This document shows positions 17,735-45,803 of a stretch of 45,803 nucleotides of DNA, piece after piece. Numbering within the stretch: the stretch's first letter is position 1; each line of letters starts with the position of its first letter. The translations under genes and the position numbers were made by a program. The DNA is from a virus (lineage: Duplodnaviria > Caudoviricetes): positions 1 through 45,803 of IMG/VR virus record IMGVR_UViG_3300020686_000006; one strand, given 5' to 3'. The notes below the pieces were generated by a model, which had not been told where the DNA came from, did no database searches, and worked only from the letters and a program-made list of their open reading frames with translations.

Positions 17735-17916
17735 TATTTTTTCCTTAGTTTACCTAGTGTTTCTGCTAGACGAGCTTCCTTGCCTTCTTTACCAGGCTTC
17801 TTAGCCGCCGCTTCAAGCTTAGCTTTAGGAATCTTTTTACCTTCGGGTACTCCAAGTTTTTCATGCAAAGCCCCTTTGTTTTTTGTTGCACCAGCGATCC
17901 AATTTTTTGTAGCCAT
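17734..17916 (-). CDS. Small lysine-rich protein
   Basis: NWIAGA..KGALH.KLGVP.GKKIP..RLAETL; coupled to its neighbours. Confidence 0.75.
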   Translation of the reverse strand: MATKNWIAGATKNKGALHEKLGVPEGKKIPKAKLEAAAKKPGKEGKEARLAETLGKLRKK

Positions 17917-17918
17917 GA

Positions 17919-18140
17919 TTACTTTCCTTTCTTAGCGTACATTGCAGGAGACTCTTTACCAGACTTAAGTCGTTTAGCTTCAGCCATCAAAGTTTTAGAA
18001 GAGGCTTTCTCGCCTTCACCCTTTTCACCTTTAACGTACTGCTTTGGTGTTATTTTACCTTTGCGTACATCTTTAGCTTCTGTCATCTCTTCACGCTTGG
18101 TCTCTTTACCTTTGAATATTTTTTTCAGATTGGTAGCCAT
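17919..18140 (-). CDS. Small lysine-rich protein, first gene of the late operon
   Basis: ATG 18140 with GGAGG SD; internal duplication (KGKITPKQY / SGKESPAMY). Confidence 0.7.
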   Translation of the reverse strand: MATNLKKIFKGKETKREEMTEAKDVRKGKITPKQYVKGEKGEGEKASSKTLMAEAKRLKSGKESPAMYAKKGK

Positions 18141-18221
18141 GTCATCCTCCTGTGATAAAAGTTGTATTATCATACACAACGCAACGTTTTTGTTGTTTTT
18201 AATTTTTTCCGGAGAAAAATT

Positions 18222-18482
18222 ATGCTAGACCTTATCGAGACAATGCTGCGTGAATTTCGTGTATTTTCCCAAGATTTTTATACTTTTCGTGACCAAATGC
18301 AAGCATTTATTGACTCCCAGTCTGCGGTTACTGATGCTGTGGCTCCTGCTGTTGCTGATCCCGTTCCTGCCGTGGCTGCTTCAGAGCCTACTCCAGCTCC
18401 AACTGTCGAGCCAACCCCATCTGTTGTAGACAATGTTGCTACTGCTGATACTGTAACTATTGAAGTTACCCCAAGCGCTTAA
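18222..18482 (+). CDS. Hypothetical protein: N-terminal helix plus Ala/Pro/Val/Thr-rich tail
   Basis: ATG 18222 with GGAG SD; followed by its own terminator. Confidence 0.7.
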   Translation: MLDLIETMLREFRVFSQDFYTFRDQMQAFIDSQSAVTDAVAPAVADPVPAVAASEPTPAPTVEPTPSVVDNVATADTVTIEVTPSA

Positions 18483-18503
18483 GTCTTAGACAATTTAGTG
18501 CTG

Positions 18504-18524
18504 CCCACTTCGGTGGGTTTTTTT
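18504..18524 (+). terminator. Rho-independent terminator
   Basis: CCCAC-TTCG-GTGGG followed by T7. Confidence 0.85.
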
Positions 18525-18677
18525 ATGGGCGCTCGGTATTTGTTGTGGCTAATATACACAACATGTAAAAATTTGACCTTGCGATGTGTGAAACGGATAA
18601 GGTGGGGGGCGGCGTGTCATGGGCGTGTCCCTCTCCCTCTCCCCTGCTGTCGTTTGTCGGGTAGAAACCATTAGTGT

Positions 18678-19001
18678 AGGGACGATCGTGTCTCTCGCTT
18701 CAAGCTCATTAAATTGGCGACGTGTTTATATTTGTGCGGTACTTCGTGCCTTTGCCTTAGTGCATCAGGTCAAGTGTCGAGAACATGGGTATATTTGCGT
18801 GAAGTTTAATCATTAAAAATTCGACTCTCGGATGTGGCTAATGCGTGTGCATTTTCGTCCCGAGCGCTCTTTGTAGGTGAGCGTGAGCTAACTACCGATA
18901 TTACCCTTGCATCATCTAAACCCCTAGGGGCATGGTGTAAACACACACGGCAAAGTGTGGCAAGGGGATTTTAATGTGTGTCTTAATCCTAGGATACACA
19001 T
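18678..19001 (+). ncRNA. Candidate large structured RNA / early leader
   Basis: More than ten mutually compatible helices including long-range pairings, with many G-U pairs valid only on the + strand (see findings). Confidence 0.55.
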
Positions 19002-19030
19002 ACACAATCAATTTACTTAAGGGGAAACTC

Positions 19031-19438
19031 ATGGAAAATAATCAGCTCACAATTATCGACGTAGATGCAACTTACTCATTGTCGGTTAAAAAGCCCGAGA
19101 AAGTCGGTTCGCTATCAATGCTTATCGCCTTCGGTGATTCGACTAGCCGTAAGGGTGTAGCCGAAGATCTTTTAACTCGCCAATACTTAAGTGGTACTTA
19201 TCGTCCCGTACTTCGTGACCTTGGCAATAATTTGCTTAACTCTAAAACAATCGTATTCTTTCCCGAGATTACCGAATCTGGTGCATTGAATAAAACCCGC
19301 TTTATTGACGCATGTAAACGCCTCTATAACGCATTGAACAATGGTAAAGAGTTAAAAGGTAAAAAGGCTTTTTACTTCGGATTCTTAAAGCATGTAGTTG
19401 AAACTGCTACTGTTCGTGAAACTGTTCTTGAGGCTTAA
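19031..19438 (+). CDS. Hypothetical early protein
   Basis: ATG 19031 with AAGGGG SD (ORF-track start 18974 is buried in a hairpin). Confidence 0.75.
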   Translation: MENNQLTIIDVDATYSLSVKKPEKVGSLSMLIAFGDSTSRKGVAEDLLTRQYLSGTYRPVLRDLGNNLLNSKTIVFFPEITESGALNKTRFIDACKRLYNALNNGKELKGKKAFYFGFLKHVVETATVRETVLEA

Positions 19439-19502
19439 ATTAATCTATCCTAGTCACGATATTAAACTGACTAACACTTAACAACTTATTGAGGATTTTA
19501 TT

Positions 19503-19718
19503 ATGCGAGTACATTTATTGCCTAAGGGTGTAAGTATTGCACCATTGCCTAGTTTAGTTAAGATTGAACCTGTAAGCAAACTCCAAGGTGGTTTACCGCC
19601 TGTGCCGTATCGTTCAGCTAATCGTGCTATTGTCGGATTTCATAAGCGTTCAATCGTTCGGTGGTCAGCGTACACCAAGTCGGTTCGTGCCCCATCAGCG
19701 CCAAAAATCATACGATAA
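19503..19718 (+). CDS. Hypothetical basic protein
   Basis: GAGG SD, 71 aa. Confidence 0.55.
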   Translation: MRVHLLPKGVSIAPLPSLVKIEPVSKLQGGLPPVPYRSANRAIVGFHKRSIVRWSAYTKSVRAPSAPKIIR

Positions 19719-19720
19719 AT

Positions 19721-20050
19721 GAATATTCCAGTGTATTCTTATAGAATAAATAAGAGAATATTTGAAATGTGTTGATTCTATTAGGTTTTTTGGTATGAAT
19801 ATTCCAATATTCCAATATTCTATACAAATACATACATATATACATTTATGTGTCGGTCTAATCGGATGATGAAATGCGGATACATATAATCCATTACATA
19901 CATCACACACGAAAGTCGTCTGACCCTTTTCAAAACTTGGAATATTGGAATATTCAAAATCCGAATTCTCAAGATGCCCTATTCATGGGGCTTTCCGTGT
20001 AAGTAATCACTCACGAGAATATTCCAGCCCTAAAAATCATTGGAATATTC
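19721..20050. repeat. AT-rich cluster of GAATATTCC(A) direct and inverted repeats; putative replication origin
   Basis: Copies at 19721, 19756 (degenerate), 19797-19821 (three in tandem), 19937-19955 (inverted), 20017 and 20041 (inverted) in a non-coding AT-rich gap. Confidence 0.7.
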
Positions 20051-20173
20051 ACCCCATCGAATTCTTTAATCTCACTCCTGCTATGCAGGAGTATACAAGT
20101 CAATTTCCCTGTTGTCAACTGGCTTGTATCTTTTCAACGACAACAATCCAAACTTACTTACGGAGCACCTATC

Positions 20174-20365
20174 ATGGCTTTAAATTACTTAACCCTACGC
20201 ATAGACAACCCCGAAAAAGCTGACATTGACTACGACTTTGAGGAGTTCGTGATCGACTTTCCCGAGATGGCGGACTACATCATGGAGGAGGAACGCCACT
20301 TTACTTGTTATCTCAACCAGTTAACCATGCCCCATAACGCATTGAATTGGAGGAATTATGTTTGA
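20174..20365 (+). CDS. Hypothetical acidic protein
   Basis: GGAG SD, 63 aa. Confidence 0.7.
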   Translation: MALNYLTLRIDNPEKADIDYDFEEFVIDFPEMADYIMEEERHFTCYLNQLTMPHNALNWRNYV

Positions 20366-20534
20366 AAAAGTAATACAAATTAATTATGTCGGATTGACTG
20401 CGCTATCGTCGATGATGATGTGTGCGGGTGCATGGAATCAGACAAGCTACGCATTAATTAACCAAGCCTTATTGGCTTTTGGTGCGTTCATCTTTGGAAT
20501 AGTAACTGCAAAGGCGGTCAATCATGGAGACTAA
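20358..20534 (+). CDS. Small two-TM membrane protein (58 aa)
   Basis: Not in ORF track. GGAGG SD; MFEKVIQINYVGLTALSSMMMCAGAWNQTSYALINQALLAFGAFIFGIVTAKAVNHGD*. Confidence 0.6.
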   Translation: MFEKVIQINYVGLTALSSMMMCAGAWNQTSYALINQALLAFGAFIFGIVTAKAVNHGD

Positions 20535-20712
20535 ACCCACAATAACTGTACAAGTTAAACCTGTATACGGGAATGTCCTAATATATCCTGTGTGTACAAA
20601 CGCTACACTATTTGCAAACCTAACCAAGACTAAAACACTGAGCAAAGCAAACCTAAAGGATATCGAATCCCTTGGGTATGAGGTAATTAAACAACCATTC
20701 ACTGGGGAGTAA
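20524..20712 (+). CDS. Conserved small phage protein
   Basis: VQVKPVYG..IYPVC..A.LFA.L..TKTL....LGY pattern common in phage early regions. Confidence 0.75.
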   Translation: METKPTITVQVKPVYGNVLIYPVCTNATLFANLTKTKTLSKANLKDIESLGYEVIKQPFTGE

Positions 20713-20713
20713 C

Positions 20714-20932
20714 ATGGAAGATTATCACTTACCTATCTGTACCAAATGCTATGCAGTAAGGGTAGAACCACATCGGGCTAAGATGCTACGACCAACTTGT
20801 ATGTCGTGCGGTGAAGTACTTGCCAAGGAGGTTAAGCGTACAGTTGTGCCCATGCACAAATCAAACTATCTACTCATTACAGATTTAAATGATCTTAAGG
20901 GTATCAACAACAAAGGAGGTAACTTTAGATGA
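20714..20932 (+). CDS. Small zinc-finger protein
   Basis: CTKC..CMSC followed by VVPMHKSNY..DLKGINNKGG; GGGGAG SD. Confidence 0.75.
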   Translation: MEDYHLPICTKCYAVRVEPHRAKMLRPTCMSCGEVLAKEVKRTVVPMHKSNYLLITDLNDLKGINNKGGNFR

Positions 20933-21105
20933 TTAAAACATTTAACGTATATATAAGCGAGACGTATTCAGGGTATGTAACTATTGAGGCTGACAACCCT
21001 GAGCAAGCAGAGGAGTTGGTGCGGGATAAGCTAGTAAACGGAGACATCAACCCAATGGAGGAGTTTGACGGAGACACAATGATTGAGGTAACTTTAGATG
21101 ATTGA
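20929..21105 (+). CDS. DpnD/PcfM-like small protein (58 aa)
   Basis: Not in ORF track. GGAGG SD; MIKTFNVYISETYSGYVTIEADNPEQAEELV matches the K-F-x-V-x-I-x-E-T..V-x-I-E-A..A pattern. Confidence 0.65.
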   Translation: MIKTFNVYISETYSGYVTIEADNPEQAEELVRDKLVNGDINPMEEFDGDTMIEVTLDD

Positions 21106-21229
21106 GTTAATGCAGGACTACAACTATAAATTGTTCGCATGGTTTGCATCTCGACTTGATGCACGTCGCCTTATAAGGGAGAACTGTGCGAGGATTCACC
21201 TATCACGAACCAACGGAGTCAGACCATGA
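21098..21229 (+). CDS. Small hypothetical protein (43 aa)
   Basis: Not in ORF track. GAGG SD; MIELMQDYNYKLFAWFASRLDARRLIRE..; ATGA overlap with the next gene. Confidence 0.6.
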   Translation: MIELMQDYNYKLFAWFASRLDARRLIRENCARIHLSRTNGVRP

Positions 21230-21432
21230 AGTCAAACTATAAACGCTACACCGTCGCAGGTGTTGGTGGTATTAATTGTAGATGTTGTGTCTCTTATGGT
21301 GCAAAACCTACATATAAGAAGCAAGCCAAGCGTAGATTCAACGAATCAATCCAACAACTAATCCTTAAGGAGATCGCAGATGGAGACAAGCCAACTAAAT
21401 CTATGGGTAGAAATACCATTGAAAGTGACTAA
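21226..21432 (+). CDS. Small basic protein with CxCC motif
   Basis: GVGGINCRCC then Lys/Arg-rich helix; GGAG SD. Confidence 0.65.
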   Translation: MKSNYKRYTVAGVGGINCRCCVSYGAKPTYKKQAKRRFNESIQQLILKEIADGDKPTKSMGRNTIESD

Positions 21433-21434
21433 AA

Positions 21435-21536
21435 ATGAAACTATTTAAAGAAAAACTAATTCACTTTTCGATCAACCTATTATTGACTGTGGTATTTATT
21501 GGCATAGTCATGAGAATCATCTGGCTCATATCCTGA
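21435..21536 (+). CDS. Possible single-TM microprotein (33 aa)
   Basis: Not in ORF track. MKLFKEKLIHFSINLLLTVVFIGIVMRIIWLIS*. Confidence 0.45.
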   Translation: MKLFKEKLIHFSINLLLTVVFIGIVMRIIWLIS

Positions 21537-21645
21537 GCTAGTCAGTAACTAATTAAGATGAACATAAGCATAGAACTTATGAGTATAGAGAGGTGCTAGG
21601 GTTTTCCCTAGTACGAAATTCCCAAACTAACTAACGGAGTAATCC

Positions 21646-22650
21646 ATGAAATATTCAGATATTGAGCGTTCAGTCAAAGCCAACTTTGCCAAGGGTAATT
21701 TACTTGTACCCTACATCGTGGGTAAACCAGGTGGTGGTAAGTCATCCCTTGCCCGTGCAATTGTCAAGTCACTTGGCATCAAACCCGAGAGAGTTGTGGA
21801 GTTTAATCCATCACTTCGTGACCCAGTGGATATCATGGGTATACCTAGAACCGATGCGGATGTAGCCAAGTGGGTTCCGATGCCTGAGTTTTACCGTATT
21901 CGTGACGATGGTATCAATGAGCCGTGTGCGTTAATCATCGAGGAGTTAAGCGATGCGCCTATACCGATGCAAAATCCCATGTGTCGTGTCATCCTTGATC
22001 GTTGTGCGGGTGAGCTTAAACTACATCCTAAACTGTACATCATTGCATCAGGTAATCGTACCGAGGACAAGTCAGGTGCTAATCGTATGAGTACCAAACT
22101 GGGCAATCGTATGCAGACTTTAGTGTTCGACGAGAACCTAGACGACTGGTGTGCGTGGGCATTGGAGTCTAACATCGCAGTCGAGATGATTCAGTTTCTT
22201 AGGTTCAGACCTAACCTATTGTCCGACTTTGACCCCAACCGCAGTATCAACCCGACACCAAGATCGTGGGAGATGGCAAACCAAGTGGATACCGAGTTGC
22301 CTAGTGATCTTTACTTCTCCAACATTGCAGGTTGTGTGGGTGAGGGTGCGGCGGCTGAGTATACAGGGTTCAAGCGTATCTATGAGGGACTACCTGATAT
22401 CGACGGCATCTTACTCAACCCAAGCAAGGCGCAAGTACCGACCGACCCAGCGATATTGTTTGCGTTGACTGGTGCTTTGGCTCATAAGTGTAGTAAGGAT
22501 AACTTCGATAGAGTTACCGAGTACATCGACAGATTACCAAGTGACTTCCAAGTTATGTGTATCTATGATGCTCAGAAAATCAAGCCTGAGATTCGCAATA
22601 CCAAGGCGTTCATCGCATGGTCTGTTAAAAATGCTAGTGTGTTAATGTAA
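21646..22650 (+). CDS. AAA+ ATPase (MoxR-like / AAA_5)
   Basis: Walker A GKPGGGKS, Walker B variant LIIEE, sensor I ASGN, L.NR arginine finger, PTPRSWE sensor II. Confidence 0.88.
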   Translation: MKYSDIERSVKANFAKGNLLVPYIVGKPGGGKSSLARAIVKSLGIKPERVVEFNPSLRDPVDIMGIPRTDADVAKWVPMPEFYRIRDDGINEPCALIIEELSDAPIPMQNPMCRVILDRCAGELKLHPKLYIIASGNRTEDKSGANRMSTKLGNRMQTLVFDENLDDWCAWALESNIAVEMIQFLRFRPNLLSDFDPNRSINPTPRSWEMANQVDTELPSDLYFSNIAGCVGEGAAAEYTGFKRIYEGLPDIDGILLNPSKAQVPTDPAILFALTGALAHKCSKDNFDRVTEYIDRLPSDFQVMCIYDAQKIKPEIRNTKAFIAWSVKNASVLM

Positions 22651-39695: not shown

Positions 39696-39933
39696 ATTTC
39701 CCTTGAATAAGCTGGTCAATTTTTGCTTCAAGCCTATTAAAGCGTTGGTCAATGTGGTCTGTAATTCTAACAATTTCTGAATTGGTGACATATTCACGAG
39801 CGATCTCCTCTCTAGTGCGGTTTAACAAAATCTCAAGTCGTTTGAGTTCTGCAAACTTCTCTTTCAGAAAAAATGTAATCAGCCCTGTTGCTAGCGTTAA
39901 TCCGGCTGACCATATCGTATTTAAGTCCATCAT
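39694..39933 (-). CDS. Small N-terminal TM plus coiled-coil protein
   Basis: IWSAGLTLATGLITFFL then LLNRTREEIAREYVT..RFNRLEAKIDQL; ATGA-coupled to the giant gene. Confidence 0.75.
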   Translation of the reverse strand: MMDLNTIWSAGLTLATGLITFFLKEKFAELKRLEILLNRTREEIAREYVTNSEIVRITDHIDQRFNRLEAKIDQLIQGK

Positions 39934-42900
39934 ACACCCATCGTGGCTAAAAATTGTTTATTTTGTTTAGAAGATTCTACCCCATTGACTACTGAATTTT
40001 CACGCTTCTTAGCTGCCATTGGTGCTTTTAACAACTCCGATAGCGGTTGGCGTTTGTACCCATTAGCCACACGAGATTCTTCCATGCGTTTGAATTCTTC
40101 ACGAGCGTTAGACATAGCTTTATAGTCGCTAGCTCTAGCTGCTTTTACATACTCACCTTTGATCTCGGTCAATCTTGCTTCGTACTCTTTATCGTATTCT
40201 GCTTTAACTTTCTGAGCAAATTGTTGGTGTGTAATTTGGTTAGTTGGTAATCCAACAAGCTGGGAAGCTGCGGTCAATATTCCTACATCTTGGGGCTTCA
40301 TAACCAAGTCCCCATTGCGCATAGTCATACCTTCTTCTGCGAACCTTACAGCTTTAAGTATATTGGCAATACCATTAGGCATAGCCATTTCAATACCTTT
40401 GTAGTAATTACCTTGGTTAACCAACTGATACGCATCGGCAAACTTCTCTGCGAGGTTAAGCGATGGGCCAAGAATAGCTAGTGCAGTTTGTTCTACACCT
40501 GTACGGCTAGTTAAATCGGGAACTACATACCCACCAAATGGAGACGCAACGTTTTCCATAGAGAGCTTTTTACCTAAAGACTCCCATCCAACTGCACCAG
40601 TTACACCCCTTAAAAGCAAATCAGCCGCTACTGGATTACCAATTAGTTTACGTAACTTGTACTCAGGGTCATCAGGCTCGTCAGGTGAACCAAACATCTT
40701 CAATGTTAAGAACATTAACTGAGATACAAACGGTACACCAAGTGCTCCACCAACTACTGCCATCTGAGCTGATATAAACGCAAGGGTCTTGCGGGCAACC
40801 ATACGCTCTTCTTTACTTGCGCTGTTAAAGCTAGAGTGAATTAACTTGCCCAGCATGGAGAGCTGAATAATTTGGAACCTACGGAACTGACCAATAATTT
40901 GACCAGTTACGCCTTTGAGTGCTCTTGGAGTGTTAAAACTATCGTAAGAACCATGTGTATCTGATACAACATCGGATGCGTATTGGATTGCAGCTTCGGT
41001 ACTGGTATTACCATACCGCTCTAAGTATCCACGGTACGCCGCAATAGCCGCCACAGAACGGTTTATTGCTTCAATGCGGTTGGTAATGCCTTGCATTTTG
41101 TACATGACTTTACCAAATACACCTTGCTCATGTGAACGTGCTTTGAACTCGGAGTCCATACCAATATCAATTTTACCCATGCCGACCAAACGCTCCAGCA
41201 TGGCACGTACATCTGCAGGTGCTTTGCTAAAGTCAACATGGTTATTTACATCCTTAAAATTAAAGATGTCTTTGATTTTGGCAATATCGTCATATGCACG
41301 GGCAATATGCCTTGTGGCATTAGCGTAGCCAATTCGACCAGCTAGGTAGGGTAAAGATATAGCACCAGTCTGCAACATCTGTTGGAGGTAGAAAGCAGGG
41401 CTAAATGTCAGCGACCAAATGTGGTTCATCTGATTGAGAGTTTTAGCAAGAACACTTGGTGTTTTGTAGTCCATACTTTGGGTATGGCGGTTAATCAACT
41501 CATTAAAGTAAGGCATAGCCTCACCACGGTTGCGTCTAGCTTCTTCACGCATCTTATCAATAGAGTCATTGATAGCGTCATTGTGTTTCATGGTCGCCAA
41601 GAAGTGAGCATCGGCACGACCTGCTGTTGCCAAGTTACGCATCATGTTGGAGTCATATCCAGCAATCTTCTTTTGTTGAAGCGTAAACTTCTTAGCACTA
41701 TTTTGAGCCACAGTCATGAGGTACAAGTTACCAATCATGTTATCAAATGCTTTATATTCAGGAGACCCTTTGTCTTCTGTTTGGCGCTTCATTAAGTTAC
41801 GAAGTCTAGCTACTGCAAGGTGCATATCAGAGCCACCAGTGTAAGATGCCTCAGTCTCTTTTGGAGAAGCTTCAACATGGTCGTAGTGTCCAGTAGCTGC
41901 AAGGTTATTAGCGATTGCTTTAGCTTCGCCGATTGTGTCTGCAAACTGAACGACGTAATGCGTTGGGTTAGACTGGTTCTCGTCCATCCAAATCTTAGCG
42001 GAGTTAGTTGTTCCAACTACACCATGATTACCAACAGGGGCTGCGTTTTCGCCTTTTAGGATATCTTCGTAGGCTTGGTATTCAGCAGACTTAGCCACGA
42101 CAAGGTAGTTGCCGTAACGAGCCAGGTGTCCGTAAGGAACGGATGGGTCAAGCTCCACTATCTTAGACATAGCCGCTTTTTTATCTGCGGCGACCTGTGC
42201 TTCATCGTTTGGTATTCCAAGAGCAAGTCGCTCGGCTTCTGCAAATTCACGGTTTACAGCTTCTTTGGCAGCAATCTGTTTTGCTATTAATGCTTGATAG
42301 CCATGTTCAAAATAATTCTTAATTACCTCTTGCCCCTCAGAGGAGAACGCTTTAAACCGTTTGACCAAGTCGTCATCCATAAGGTCGTATATCAGCGTTG
42401 TACCGATGCGGTGTTCTTCGGGCATATAGCCCCACTTACCGAGCATCACAGAGTCTTCGATAAACTTGTTTACGCTACTAGCACCAGTACCTTTTTCTTC
42501 GCCTTCAAGAGCATCATGTGCTGTTAAGATTTTGTCGATGCGGTTGTTCCACTTAGCTACGTCAGCTTGACGAGCATACTGGCTGGTTAAATACCTAGCC
42601 GCAGATGGCATATGCTTGGTAGCAAACTTAACAATATCTTCAGTAATTGCAGACTTAAGAACTATATCTTTAGCCGCACCAAACTTGTTGTGGAGCTGGC
42701 TTACTAATCCATTAACTATGACCTTAGTTGGTTTTTGTAGATTAGGTGGTAAACCATCTATTGTTTTTTCTATCCGTTGTTGGGTTCTGTTTTCCCTGAG
42801 ACGAACGGCAACTTGGCTCCTTTGAAGTTGTCCTGACTCAACATCCCCTGTTTTTTGGGTAATGTTCGGATTAACTTTCGTCTTGCCGCTATTCGCTTTG

Positions 42901-45803
42901 TTAAGTCCATACTTTGTTTTTTCGACATCGTCATATATTTTCTCCATAAAATCTGCCACATTAGGCAGATGCTCTTCTAAAAAGTCACGACCTAATGAAG
43001 TATTGTACGACGCCCATAACTGAGCAAACAACTCTTCTCTAATAGAGTCCCCATCCATATTTGGGTTTTGTTTTCTATCAAATGGGTATACCAAATGCTG
43101 AGACAACTCACTATTAGGTTCTGCTAAATAGTGCTCGTGTACCTCTTTAATAATATTCCCCATAGGGATAATCTTGTTGTTCTTAACGGCAACATTGAAC
43201 TCAGGCAAACTGGAAAATATGCCACCCATACCAGAGCCAAGATCATCTATGGCATGTCCAATCTCGTGGTGTGTTGTCCACTCAGTATTTATAGCATCGT
43301 GCAAACTGCCAACTCTAAAGACAATAGCATTTTGCCCGTTGATTTGCATAAAAGCACCATCCCAAGGTACTTCATCGTCAGTTACATACCAAGCTTCAAC
43401 AGCGTCAAGTACATGAGCCATTCCCCTATTTTCATAGTGAGAGAAAGCTCGAGCAATGCCCGGATACTTTTGGTCAAGTTCAGATAAAGACTTTTCATCC
43501 GCTACAAAAGTATTATTATCTTCATCAAGTAAAGTCATTGACCTTGGGTTTTTAAGGAAGTTAACCTTTTCTTCTTTGCCAACCACAACTCGAGTTTGTA
43601 AATTTTTATTGGCATTTGGTACAGTAGTTGTAATTGTTTGTGTAACAGGGTTTACCGATCTGCGGTTAATATCTGTAGCCTTAGTGGCTTCGCCATTAAT
43701 AAAGTTCATGACGTTGTTGTCTTTATCAGGAACTATAAATATAGTAGCTCCGTCCAACTCGTTCTCATGTTCTTTAAGTAACTTACCAAAAGTGGCTTTA
43801 TCCACGTTGATACAACCAAAAGAATACCTAGAGTTTTGTGCTCCAGGTTCTTTAAGCGCTTGCAGGCGCTTTGGTGCATCTGGAAGATGCGTATATACAG
43901 AATGTAGATAAGTTGTAAAGTATTGGTTTTTTGTATCTGGGTCTGTCTCTACTGATCCAAACACGGTATCAAAATCATAGCCTTCAGTACTTGAGGTATG
44001 AGTGCGCTTAACCATTGTCCTAAGGCCAGCTGGAGTAATCTTATTAGCATCAAGGTTGTTATCGCCTTTAGCAAAATCGCCAAAGCTTTTTGCTAGTAAT
44101 ACTTTGCTCTTTAAAAGTAGTGTTCCATCTGGGTTAAACACAAACTGCATTGCAGTTGGCTTATCCGTAATCAAAAATAGCTTGTTTGACTTAATTAAAT
44201 CATCTTTGATTGCTGGGTAAAGAACTTCATACGCCCGTTTTGCCTGCGCAGACATATCTTTAGCAGCTTCCACAGGAACAGGTTGTGTTACTTCAACAGT
44301 TCTTGTTTGCGTAATTGGTACAGTTATTGGGATTGGTTGCGATAAGAAACTTGGATTAAATACCAACGCTACGGCTAGTACCCCTTCGGATACTGCTTTA
44401 ATAATGTCACGGACTGCACCAGCTACGGCTGTTGCACCTTTGTTTATATAAGCGACAACATCGTCTCTTACCTTAGCGGCAAACTCAGCGGTTCCACGCT
44501 TAACGCCGTAGAACTTTTCTAAACGGCTAGTCTGACCTTCCGTCAGCTTTTCAATATGCGGGGTTAGTAGTTCTTCAGTAACAGAAGTAACAGGTGGTGT
44601 TGTACTCTCTTTGGCAGTGGTAGGCTGCTCAGAAACCTCAGAAGTTTTATTCTGTGTGGCTTCTTTATTAAGTTTAACAAGCTCTGCACGAACGTCACTA
44701 GGTGTCCAGTTATCTTTGCCATAGTCAATGAAAGTCTCTCGTTGGTCTTTAGTTAGTTCCGCAAACTTTGGCGCACCAGGGATAGTGTCTGCAACTTTAT
44801 TCCAAGACTCTTCCGCCAACTCAACATCAGTTTTAATAACTGTGGGTTCTACCTTTTTCTGCTCGCTTGGCTTTTCACTGGTTTTTTCGGTGCTACTTTG
44901 TTTGGTAGATTTTTTGGATTCGGCGTTTCCTTTGCCCACCTTTTTGCTACTTTGGGCTGGTTTGCGAACATTTCCCTCATCTGTGCTTTGCTCTTGAACG
45001 GCATTTTCTTCCTCTCCTTCTTCATTGTTAGTTACAACTACTCCACTATTCTTATCCCAAGTGGCTTGCTTTTTGCCGTACTCAGCCCAAGCGGCTTTAA
45101 TTTTCTCATCTAAGTCTTTACGGCGTGGGTCTTTTTCGGGTAAAGCATCTCGTTCTTTGGTGAGCTTTTCTATCTTGTCAAAAGTGGCCTTCGATAAAGA
45201 CTCCACTGCCCCTTGGCTACCGCCTGCTTCTGCGATAGTTCCCATAGACTGGCCTTCTTTTTCTTCGCCAGAACCGTAAATCTCATCAGATAAAAGTTTG
45301 CTTCTATCGCCCTCTTGATTGCCACCTTCCAGTTCTTCCGCAAGAGACTGTGGTTCATCTGTTGTCTCATATCTAGTAGCGTATAGACCTGCTAATTGCT
45401 GCTCCCCAATACCATCAGGAAACTCTGCAGACCTATAGTTCTCGGCTTCCCTAACAACTGTTTTCGCTAAGTCTGGGTTTGTAACAACATACTCGCTTGT
45501 CTTTGGGTCTAATTTAATACCAAGGCGTTCAAGTTGTTTTTCAACTGTTGATACATTAAGTCCAGTTAACCGGGCGATATCGGCTTGTTTTAGTTGCTCA
45601 AGTAAACTTAAACGAACTAGCTCAACACGTGTTTTAGCGTCAACCGCATTATTTCTATTGGTAAGTGGCGCTAATGCTTTTTCAAGCAGCTCACTAATTA
45701 TTTCAATTCGGCGGGCGCTTGGGATGTGTGAGAGGTCTGTGGAGTAGTATGCTGGCGGGCTAGGTGGTACATTTTGCTGATCCACTGTGGCCTGACTGGC
45801 TTG
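39930..45803 (-). CDS. Large polyvalent / internal virion (ejection-type) protein, 5'-truncated; HTH, L,D-transpeptidase-like, zincin and PLxRFG-like regions
   Basis: Frame open to the window end. HTH-like QADIARLTGLNVSTVEKQL; TDK..ITPAG..LHSV..SFGCINV; HEIGH..EELFAQ; PYGHLARYGNY followed by a long helical C-terminus. Confidence 0.8.
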   Translation of the reverse strand, partial: QASQATVDQQNVPPSPPAYYSTDLSHIPSARRIEIISELLEKALAPLTNRNNAVDAKTRVELVRLSLLEQLKQADIARLTGLNVSTVEKQLERLGIKLDPKTSEYVVTNPDLAKTVVREAENYRSAEFPDGIGEQQLAGLYATRYETTDEPQSLAEELEGGNQEGDRSKLLSDEIYGSGEEKEGQSMGTIAEAGGSQGAVESLSKATFDKIEKLTKERDALPEKDPRRKDLDEKIKAAWAEYGKKQATWDKNSGVVVTNNEEGEEENAVQEQSTDEGNVRKPAQSSKKVGKGNAESKKSTKQSSTEKTSEKPSEQKKVEPTVIKTDVELAEESWNKVADTIPGAPKFAELTKDQRETFIDYGKDNWTPSDVRAELVKLNKEATQNKTSEVSEQPTTAKESTTPPVTSVTEELLTPHIEKLTEGQTSRLEKFYGVKRGTAEFAAKVRDDVVAYINKGATAVAGAVRDIIKAVSEGVLAVALVFNPSFLSQPIPITVPITQTRTVEVTQPVPVEAAKDMSAQAKRAYEVLYPAIKDDLIKSNKLFLITDKPTAMQFVFNPDGTLLLKSKVLLAKSFGDFAKGDNNLDANKITPAGLRTMVKRTHTSSTEGYDFDTVFGSVETDPDTKNQYFTTYLHSVYTHLPDAPKRLQALKEPGAQNSRYSFGCINVDKATFGKLLKEHENELDGATIFIVPDKDNNVMNFINGEATKATDINRRSVNPVTQTITTTVPNANKNLQTRVVVGKEEKVNFLKNPRSMTLLDEDNNTFVADEKSLSELDQKYPGIARAFSHYENRGMAHVLDAVEAWYVTDDEVPWDGAFMQINGQNAIVFRVGSLHDAINTEWTTHHEIGHAIDDLGSGMGGIFSSLPEFNVAVKNNKIIPMGNIIKEVHEHYLAEPNSELSQHLVYPFDRKQNPNMDGDSIREELFAQLWASYNTSLGRDFLEEHLPNVADFMEKIYDDVEKTKYGLNKANSGKTKVNPNITQKTGDVESGQLQRSQVAVRLRENRTQQRIEKTIDGLPPNLQKPTKVIVNGLVSQLHNKFGAAKDIVLKSAITEDIVKFATKHMPSAARYLTSQYARQADVAKWNNRIDKILTAHDALEGEEKGTGASSVNKFIEDSVMLGKWGYMPEEHRIGTTLIYDLMDDDLVKRFKAFSSEGQEVIKNYFEHGYQALIAKQIAAKEAVNREFAEAERLALGIPNDEAQVAADKKAAMSKIVELDPSVPYGHLARYGNYLVVAKSAEYQAYEDILKGENAAPVGNHGVVGTTNSAKIWMDENQSNPTHYVVQFADTIGEAKAIANNLAATGHYDHVEASPKETEASYTGGSDMHLAVARLRNLMKRQTEDKGSPEYKAFDNMIGNLYLMTVAQNSAKKFTLQQKKIAGYDSNMMRNLATAGRADAHFLATMKHNDAINDSIDKMREEARRNRGEAMPYFNELINRHTQSMDYKTPSVLAKTLNQMNHIWSLTFSPAFYLQQMLQTGAISLPYLAGRIGYANATRHIARAYDDIAKIKDIFNFKDVNNHVDFSKAPADVRAMLERLVGMGKIDIGMDSEFKARSHEQGVFGKVMYKMQGITNRIEAINRSVAAIAAYRGYLERYGNTSTEAAIQYASDVVSDTHGSYDSFNTPRALKGVTGQIIGQFRRFQIIQLSMLGKLIHSSFNSASKEERMVARKTLAFISAQMAVVGGALGVPFVSQLMFLTLKMFGSPDEPDDPEYKLRKLIGNPVAADLLLRGVTGAVGWESLGKKLSMENVASPFGGYVVPDLTSRTGVEQTALAILGPSLNLAEKFADAYQLVNQGNYYKGIEMAMPNGIANILKAVRFAEEGMTMRNGDLVMKPQDVGILTAASQLVGLPTNQITHQQFAQKVKAEYDKEYEARLTEIKGEYVKAARASDYKAMSNAREEFKRMEESRVANGYKRQPLSELLKAPMAAKKRENSVVNGVESSKQNKQFLATMGV

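Follow-up and report, generated by a model that had tools for sequence, protein, structure and literature searches.

The early genes of about 50 related phages are headed by a modular RNA leader that, judged from its sequence features, likely works like an rRNA antitermination leader while carrying a new RNA fold. We analysed it in a 45,803-nt stretch of phage DNA (IMG/VR record IMGVR_UViG_3300020686_000006; this whole stretch is called the window). The modules follow one another as an AUCG-loop hairpin, a boxA site, a long rod, a second boxA site, zero to two swappable hairpins, a three-way junction, a hairpin and a ribosome-binding site, and a G/C-rich block and then a 22-nt element precede the first hairpin (Table 1). 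The motifs keep their order and spacing among relatives, the first hairpin, rod, junction and final hairpin covary, and the 5′ signals match those of the rRNA operons of one bacterial family.

Table 1 Features of the leader region in the window, in order of position.
Feature	Position	Strand	Remarks
G-rich/C-rich block	18560–18650	.	conserved upstream of the leader, outside the RNA fold; matched in 57/61 relatives
22-nt element, TTGT-N8-WACC-N6	18654–18675	+	directly before the hairpin; 36 matches in leaders
5′ hairpin with AUCG loop (boxB-like)	18678–18695	+	loop same as in the rRNA leaders of one bacterial family
boxA-like site 1	18704–18715	+	decayed in the window, perfect in many relatives
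Rod, long and imperfect, ~36–40 bp	18720–18800	+	between the boxA sites; length kept, sequence varies
boxA-like site 2	18808–18821	+	best-kept leader motif; present in 36/51 leaders
Swappable middle module	18822–18895	+	two predicted hairpins in the window; the number in relatives varies from 0 to 2
Three-way junction	18900–18970	+	closing helix 18904–18910/18960–18966
12-bp hairpin	18974–19001	+	precedes the ribosome-binding site and lacks a U tract
Ribosome-binding site	19019–19024	+	ahead of the first early gene
First early gene	19031–19438	+	135 aa; start position common to relatives

Genome context and sample of relatives

The structural genes of this phage contig lie on the minus strand up to 18179, and the plus strand carries small early genes and replication genes from 19031 to 39632, with a giant virion-type gene beyond. 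The structured stretch occupies the gap just 5′ of the first early gene (ATG at 19031). Across the group the leader is untranslated, 350–600 nt long, and heads about 20 kb of same-strand genes. No lysogeny genes were seen within the window, and the plus strand showed no clear intrinsic terminator before 39660. The first early protein had no PHROG or Pfam family, Atlas matches below 0.9 and fold matches with Z of at most 6.3.

The named phage collection gave only one terminator-sized match to the region, and the closest terminase of a named phage had 41% identity at best. IMG/VR contained 218 stretches with a related terminase, of which 80 were retained, most at 85–90% identity. Upstream DNA was sufficient in 61 relatives, and the region was matched in 57 of them; 51 stretches, the window included, offered 400 nt or more of leader.

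The 22-nt element has one copy in the window and occurs singly or in tandem per genome, at this site only. It is tandem in some relatives (40–50-nt spacing) and replaced by other sequence types in others, and these types resemble a family of protein-specific sites. The element is likely a promoter or activator site and does not follow the sigma-70 consensus. No sigma-70-like site was found on the plus strand in 17800–21700, and an rRNA-type sigma-70 promoter is absent upstream, whereas host leaders show TTGACA-17-TAGAAT-like sites. The RNA start was placed near G18676 only because the hairpin stems begin there. The giant virion protein (39930–45785, minus strand) has a sigma-region-4-like helix-turn-helix, below the cut-off and kept in four genomes; that this might read the 22-nt element is only a lead. 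No T7-type or virion RNA polymerase was recognised in five related records, a search whose controls gave no signal, and no polymerase motif or family was found in three full-length giant virion proteins.

Several neighbouring features were recorded. Among 57 related contigs, seven break off within the G/C-rich block or shortly behind it (38–116 nt in), and we suspect that the block is a genome end, a packaging site or a sequencing drop-out. In 13 of 33 relatives the strand of the structural genes carries, back to back with the leader, an Atu_At1 match (RF02496, described from Rhizobiales) of 68–85 bits, which exceeds the threshold (L027:2607–2713, L029:2012–2118, L047:4592–4697 and 10 more loci); at this position the window has a short ORF and a terminator (18222–18518). 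A near-consensus sigma-70 promoter (11/12) on the minus strand at 20118–20090 is aimed back at the leader and structural genes, and the AT-rich repeat region adjoining it (19720–20050) may be a replication origin.

Folding energy and covariation

The initial annotation had described a single structured RNA of about 325 nt, selected as RNA on the plus strand. The 324-nt stretch had a folding z-score of −2.48 on the plus and −0.09 on the minus strand; 2 of 25 other 324-nt windows attained −2.5 or lower, so that energy alone is modest evidence. By part, the junction (−2.55) and the final hairpin (−4.92) stood out, and the rod (−0.11) and the middle (0.03) did not. The structured RNA is real and its selection on the plus strand holds, but several helices proposed for it are not, and in place of one fold we found a string of independent modules.

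All the arms that had been named are present in the sequence where they were placed. The first hairpin (AGGGAC/GTCTCT), the junction (CCCTTGC/GCAAGGG), the final hairpin and GCCT/AGGT in the 18748/18767 register were confirmed by covariation, whereas TTAAATT/AGTTTAA, CGTGTTT/GAACATG, ATATTTG/CAAGTGT and GGTAC/GTGCC were not supported by relatives. In eight diverged relatives 61% of cells were paired under the earlier 5′ structure versus 79% under the minimum-energy register, whose core (18731–18755/18762–18789) pairs almost throughout in them. Two changes in near-identical genomes (18809 A>T and 18783 A>C) break two of the earlier helices and leave the rod intact. The proposed long-range AGCTCA/TGAGCT helix had a pairing probability of 0.01 and no compensatory change; a five-base version is possible in few leaders, likewise without such change. 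As a whole, the earlier structure lay 11 kcal/mol above the minimum (−88.2 versus −99.5 kcal/mol), and its helices, which relatives do not keep, had absorbed both boxA motifs, which were overlooked.

The rod core of 21 pairs was paired in 91.6% of cells, with double changes at 16 of the 21 (17 sequences, minimum-energy register). In the 3′ module, comprising the junction and the final hairpin, 98.7% of cells in 15 sequences were paired and 20 of 31 pairs showed changes in both partners, values that neither any of 500 shuffles nor any slid control approached. Taken as a 13-pair helix, the final hairpin was 99% paired, with double changes at six pairs. Kinship of the sequences can inflate these counts. 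The AUCG hairpin covaries with a freely varying stem sequence: stems of 4–10 bp with changed sequence occur in 31 of 32 distinct leaders, and the 32nd, L012, was mis-anchored there and also has the hairpin. A coding role for ORF 18619..18816 (65 codons) was rejected, as the frame there is not conserved, being open in 4 of 30 relatives, one of them near-identical.

Two boxA-like sites flank the rod

Site 1 reads a perfect GYTCTTTAANA in 14 of 57 loci, which is the exact E. coli boxA consensus given in PMC5725501. Scored with a profile of 61 host rRNA boxA contexts, site 1 of the window reached 7.1, a value attained by 40 of 91,582 window sites, and site 2 reached 14.9, against a host 10th percentile of 13.6, ranking second among the same sites. 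The host 10th percentile was reached by site 1 in 15 and by site 2 in 25 of 32 distinct leaders; site 1 was decayed or absent in the other 17. The working boxA of the window would be site 2. The top-scoring boxA-like word in the window lies elsewhere, at 2548–2561 on the plus strand, at a gene junction and antisense to tail genes, and is probably there by chance.

Site 2 mostly reads GATCATTAAMAATT, and its invariance in the 3′ half is partly circular, since the selection pattern fixes that half. With a looser boxA pattern, at least 52 of 77 matches in 1.41 Mb of loci were these leader sites. By the pattern used, 15 of 51 leaders had no match at site 2 (L015 being a near miss); in most of these the non-coding sequence is of another kind and the first gene, phrog_1448, is unrelated. 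The two sites are 95–111 nt apart in 31 of 32 leaders (the 32nd being mis-anchored) and 123–137 nt apart in three further leaders. The cleanest test came from L173, L403 and L404, because these were retrieved through the junction alone and boxA was absent from the query: all carry the hairpin and both boxA sites. Predicted pairing was 0.53 and 0.39 at the boxA sites versus 0.69 in the rod, and site 1 of the window is paired in the minimum-energy fold (0.87). The boxA words are the best-kept sequence of the leader, and the helices surrounding them turn over.

The 5′ signals match the rRNA leaders of one bacterial family

Site 2 of the window departs from the consensus at position 2 and, with an A, at position 6. 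In the lambda/E. coli system a transversion at boxA position 2, 5 or 6 cuts NusB:NusE binding, as described in PMC3177189. Since an A at position 6 should hurt binding, we examined real rRNA leaders. Ten of 401 genomes across the order matched a pattern with a non-T position 6, and nine of these matches sit 137–198 nt before the 16S start. In the betaproteobacterial family of one of these genomes, which we take to be Comamonadaceae-like, the pattern was matched by 96 of 151 genomes, and each of the four bases occurred at position 6; among the remaining 55, 24 had a leader anchor and showed further boxA variants. The start of site 2 in the window, AATCATTAA, occurs among the rRNA leader variants of this family (L372), and in two host operons the spacer boxA is identical to phage site 2 over 13–15 nt. 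Among host leaders, the AUCG 5′ hairpin was present in 31 of 37 whose boxA is non-T and in 8 of 22 whose boxA has T there. The AUCG hairpin and the A-at-6 boxA recur together in the rRNA leaders of one family, which argues that the phage copies the signals of that lineage. From the same motifs, the host would belong to this betaproteobacterial family, where the evidence that the departures at positions 2 and 6 are tolerated is the natural variation of its rRNA leaders.

Every base is seen at position 6, alongside the AUCG 5′ hairpin, in bacterial loci L337–L401 and L253–L268, and NusB of this family may have a changed pocket. Fluviibacter, with one binned 5-kb contig carrying a close terminase, was rejected as host: in the 24 of 25 loci of its family that could be read, the rRNA boxA carries T at position 6 without exception.

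In a blastn comparison of 32 leaders with five host operons we found only boxA and scattered 13–14-nt matches no better than chance; boxC and a leader–trailer helix were not found in the phage leaders in the same comparison, nor was rRNA- or tRNA-derived cargo found in the leaders. A conserved loop of the middle hairpins, UGGGUGAAG(U/C) (L050, L028, L019, L074 and others), equals a stretch near the 16S 3′ end, and GGGTGAAGTC is found at the corresponding 16S 3′ place. This match is too short to be called 16S mimicry.

The middle module and the three-way junction

The middle module is about 14, 43 or 80 nt long, and the arms present in the window have no diverged homologue. Past its closing helix, the junction has one arm bearing an internal loop, then a linker reading UAAA, then a second arm whose cap is a GGCAAA loop. 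The internal loop resembles what we take to be a GNRA tetraloop receptor. Receptor classes of this kind are named in PMC11571812. The junction model found further members, with nine distinct matches paired in 98.9% of cells, a figure fitted to the model and including some near-copies of training rows. The receptor arm is shortened to a small hairpin in five members (L042, L051, L057, L036 and L052), and two of these leaders (L036 and L052) have the junction without boxA. A junction-model scan of 100 loci taken with a loose pattern scored only two, the rest being mostly chance, and in further loose pattern scans every true match fell within this phage family, one pattern having no matches.

The junction is an independent module, because it is found both in leaders that have boxA and in others that lack it, and ahead of unlike first proteins; it is a well-supported new three-way-junction RNA family. 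As a guess, junction and final hairpin might protect or present the 5′ end of the first mRNA. A role as binding site of the first protein is unlikely: three protein families accompany the junction, and it is absent from some leaders with the family found in the window.

Leader types are exchanged between near-identical phages

On the terminase tree, five leader types required 14 changes, and sisters only 0.015 changes per site from their fork carry different types. This scatter indicates that the leader and first gene form an exchangeable cassette for which boxA is one solution among several. With 15 of 51 leaders free of site 2 and types swapped between near-identical phages, boxA is not needed group-wide.

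Long-type leaders carry 320–490 nt of other non-coding sequence after site 2 (L012, L015, L026, L027, L040, L043, L048, L055, L056, L058, L060, L063, L066, L068 and L085). Words recur among them: the loop of one hairpin reads GAAAUAG(A/U)CGA(A/G)G, other loops look like anticodon loops, and a further segment reads ACUG...GGUAAGAAUCC; the extra sequence gave no Rfam or tRNA match. A boxA-free family of leaders always precedes a phrog_1448 gene (L014, L018, L029, L031, L037, L047, L049, L059 and L067) and is likely another uncatalogued structured RNA.

Proposed function of the leader

It is fairly probable that the leader, built like the start of an rRNA operon, loads host Nus factors and, with no need for an N protein of the phage, allows read-through of itself and of the ~20-kb early region. 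The transcript would start at about G18676 and be made by host RNA polymerase; boxA would bind host NusB:S10, the other Nus factors would join on the polymerase, and the polymerase so modified would pass the leader and early region without Rho termination. A long untranslated leader followed by ~20 kb of genes with no clear terminator until 39660 is a place where a read-through signal would pay. The rRNA antitermination complex of bacteria is described as depending on boxA, which is both necessary and sufficient for it (PMC10250234). This element loads NusB:S10 into a Rho-resistant complex with NusA, NusG, SuhB and S4, and rRNA operons have one box set after the promoter and another before 23S (PMC10250234, PMC13753749, PMC12360218, PMC10931766). 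According to PMC5725501, boxA works with bacterial but not with T7 polymerase, and it can also repress, as at suhB.

The initial annotation had supposed an antiterminator, for which the direction was right; it had thought of a put-like, factor-independent type, and the evidence favours the type using boxA and host Nus factors.

An extension of the Nus-loading reading, tentative and rather doubtful, is that the leader is a miniature rRNA operon with host-tuned leader- and spacer-type boxA sites, in which the ribosome-building transcription complex would fold and process swappable structured RNAs while NusB:S10 is drawn from host rRNA genes. It would cover both the three-way junction here and the longer RNAs in relatives.

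Two other readings appear unlikely, and to a similar degree. By the first, the leader would be set free as a small RNA in large amounts; its boxA pair, brought together at the foot of the rod, would soak up NusB:S10 and throttle host rRNA synthesis, and the downstream modules would be trans-acting anti-defence cargo. Host-interaction modules are often exchanged as cassettes. The swapping of leader and first gene would fit such a decoy, as would the additional non-coding sequence of the long types and the upkeep of two sites at a kept distance where one suffices for antitermination; however, no terminator was found that would end the RNA before the first gene, site 1 is lost or decayed in about half of the distinct leaders (17 of 32), and a location right after the likely start suits a cis-acting loading site.

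By the second, the structures act without Nus factors, either as a put-like antiterminator or as an RNase III-processed, 5′-stabilised leader as in T7 early RNA, with the boxA words as leftovers of rRNA origin. A long imperfect rod and a 12–13-bp hairpin before the ribosome-binding site would suit this reading, and the junction does occur in the two boxA-free leaders L036 and L052. For a minimal RNase III substrate, PMC1540722 gives 34 nt. Against it, the boxA words are better kept than the helices around them, the rod keeps length rather than sequence, and Rfam gave no match.

It is considerably less probable that boxA serves here as a suhB-like brake, with bound Nus factors keeping the first gene from being translated and provoking Rho termination, so that early expression would follow the host's supply of free NusB:S10. 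In enterobacteria, suhB and a toxin gene have been shown to be repressed in this way, and the effect extends to boxA sites some way from the start codon (PMC5725501). In the phages, site 2 lies 155–490 nt before the start codon with folded modules between, and the order of hairpin and boxA at the 5′ end is copied from rRNA leaders and unlike suhB.

That the junction is a riboswitch aptamer or a ribozyme controlling the first gene is very improbable: a compact junction with a receptor-like loop and a GGCAAA cap directly before the expression signals would suit it, and there is a superficial likeness to c-di-GMP-I parts, but few bases are invariant (UAAAC, AA), the receptor arm can be cut to a short hairpin, no alternative fold or terminator was found, and neither the c-di-GMP-I riboswitch nor small ribozymes gave an Rfam match up to E 10 over 18300–19200.

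Relation to known RNAs

The closest known system is the rRNA antitermination leader (boxB-boxA-boxC with NusA, B, E and G, SuhB and S4, and a second boxA before 23S). Shared with it are a 5′ hairpin followed by boxA, the two boxA sites, the AUCG loop and boxA spelling of one betaproteobacterial family, and the long untranslated RNA after them. The phage leader differs in having no boxC, leader–trailer helix, rRNA sequence or sigma-70 consensus promoter, in the ~100 nt and the rod between its sites, and in the new junction and protein genes that follow. Without boxC or rRNA and with another promoter, it is not a member of the rRNA antitermination leader class.

boxA also occurs outside rRNA operons before CRISPR arrays and suhB, likewise with no phage protein (PMC13753749); these are host loci with one site, suhB being repressed, whereas the phages have tandem sites in a multi-module RNA. 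The lambdoid nut site (boxA-boxB, N protein) is likewise a phage early transcript with boxA for host NusB:S10. In our leaders, by contrast, the hairpin precedes boxA and has an AUCG loop; no nut-type boxB stem-loop was found closely after boxA, the sequence after each site being variable, and no N-type antiterminator family was recognised among 59 and 29 scanned proteins, many of them small early ones without a family. HK022 put is a factor-independent, two-stemmed RNA. It likewise heads a phage early operon as a structured RNA, but in the present leaders it is the boxA words that are conserved.

LOOT RNA (RF03000) has in common a CUAAAC...GCAUGG internal loop followed by an A-rich linker. It scored 19.2 bits against a gathering score of 46.4, its other helices do not align, and it had no match in 33 relatives; the comparison was with its Rfam model and helices. 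At gathering score Rfam gave nothing in the window, in agreement with the initial annotation, which had not recognised the family, and in 33 relatives only Atu_At1 on the other strand. The phage RNA catalogue of PMC10690425 gave no motif match in the supplementary files covered, and may list the junction elsewhere. The literature searched, in which subscription journals were thinly covered, yielded no report of a phage outside the lambdoid group with a boxA leader of the rRNA type.

Implications

Antitermination in phages is known through phage proteins (N, Q) or the factor-free put RNA. If the proposed function is true, the leader would represent a third route: it would imitate the rRNA loading signal of the host, including a loop and spelling specific to one family, and at the onset of infection it would require no protein of the phage's own. 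The rRNA leaders matched here indicate, from natural variation, that one bacterial family has relaxed boxA position 6, a critical base in E. coli, and the match of boxA and hairpin offers a means of assigning hosts to uncultured phages. The hypervariable site ahead of the early genes adds a new three-way-junction RNA family and several uncatalogued modules.
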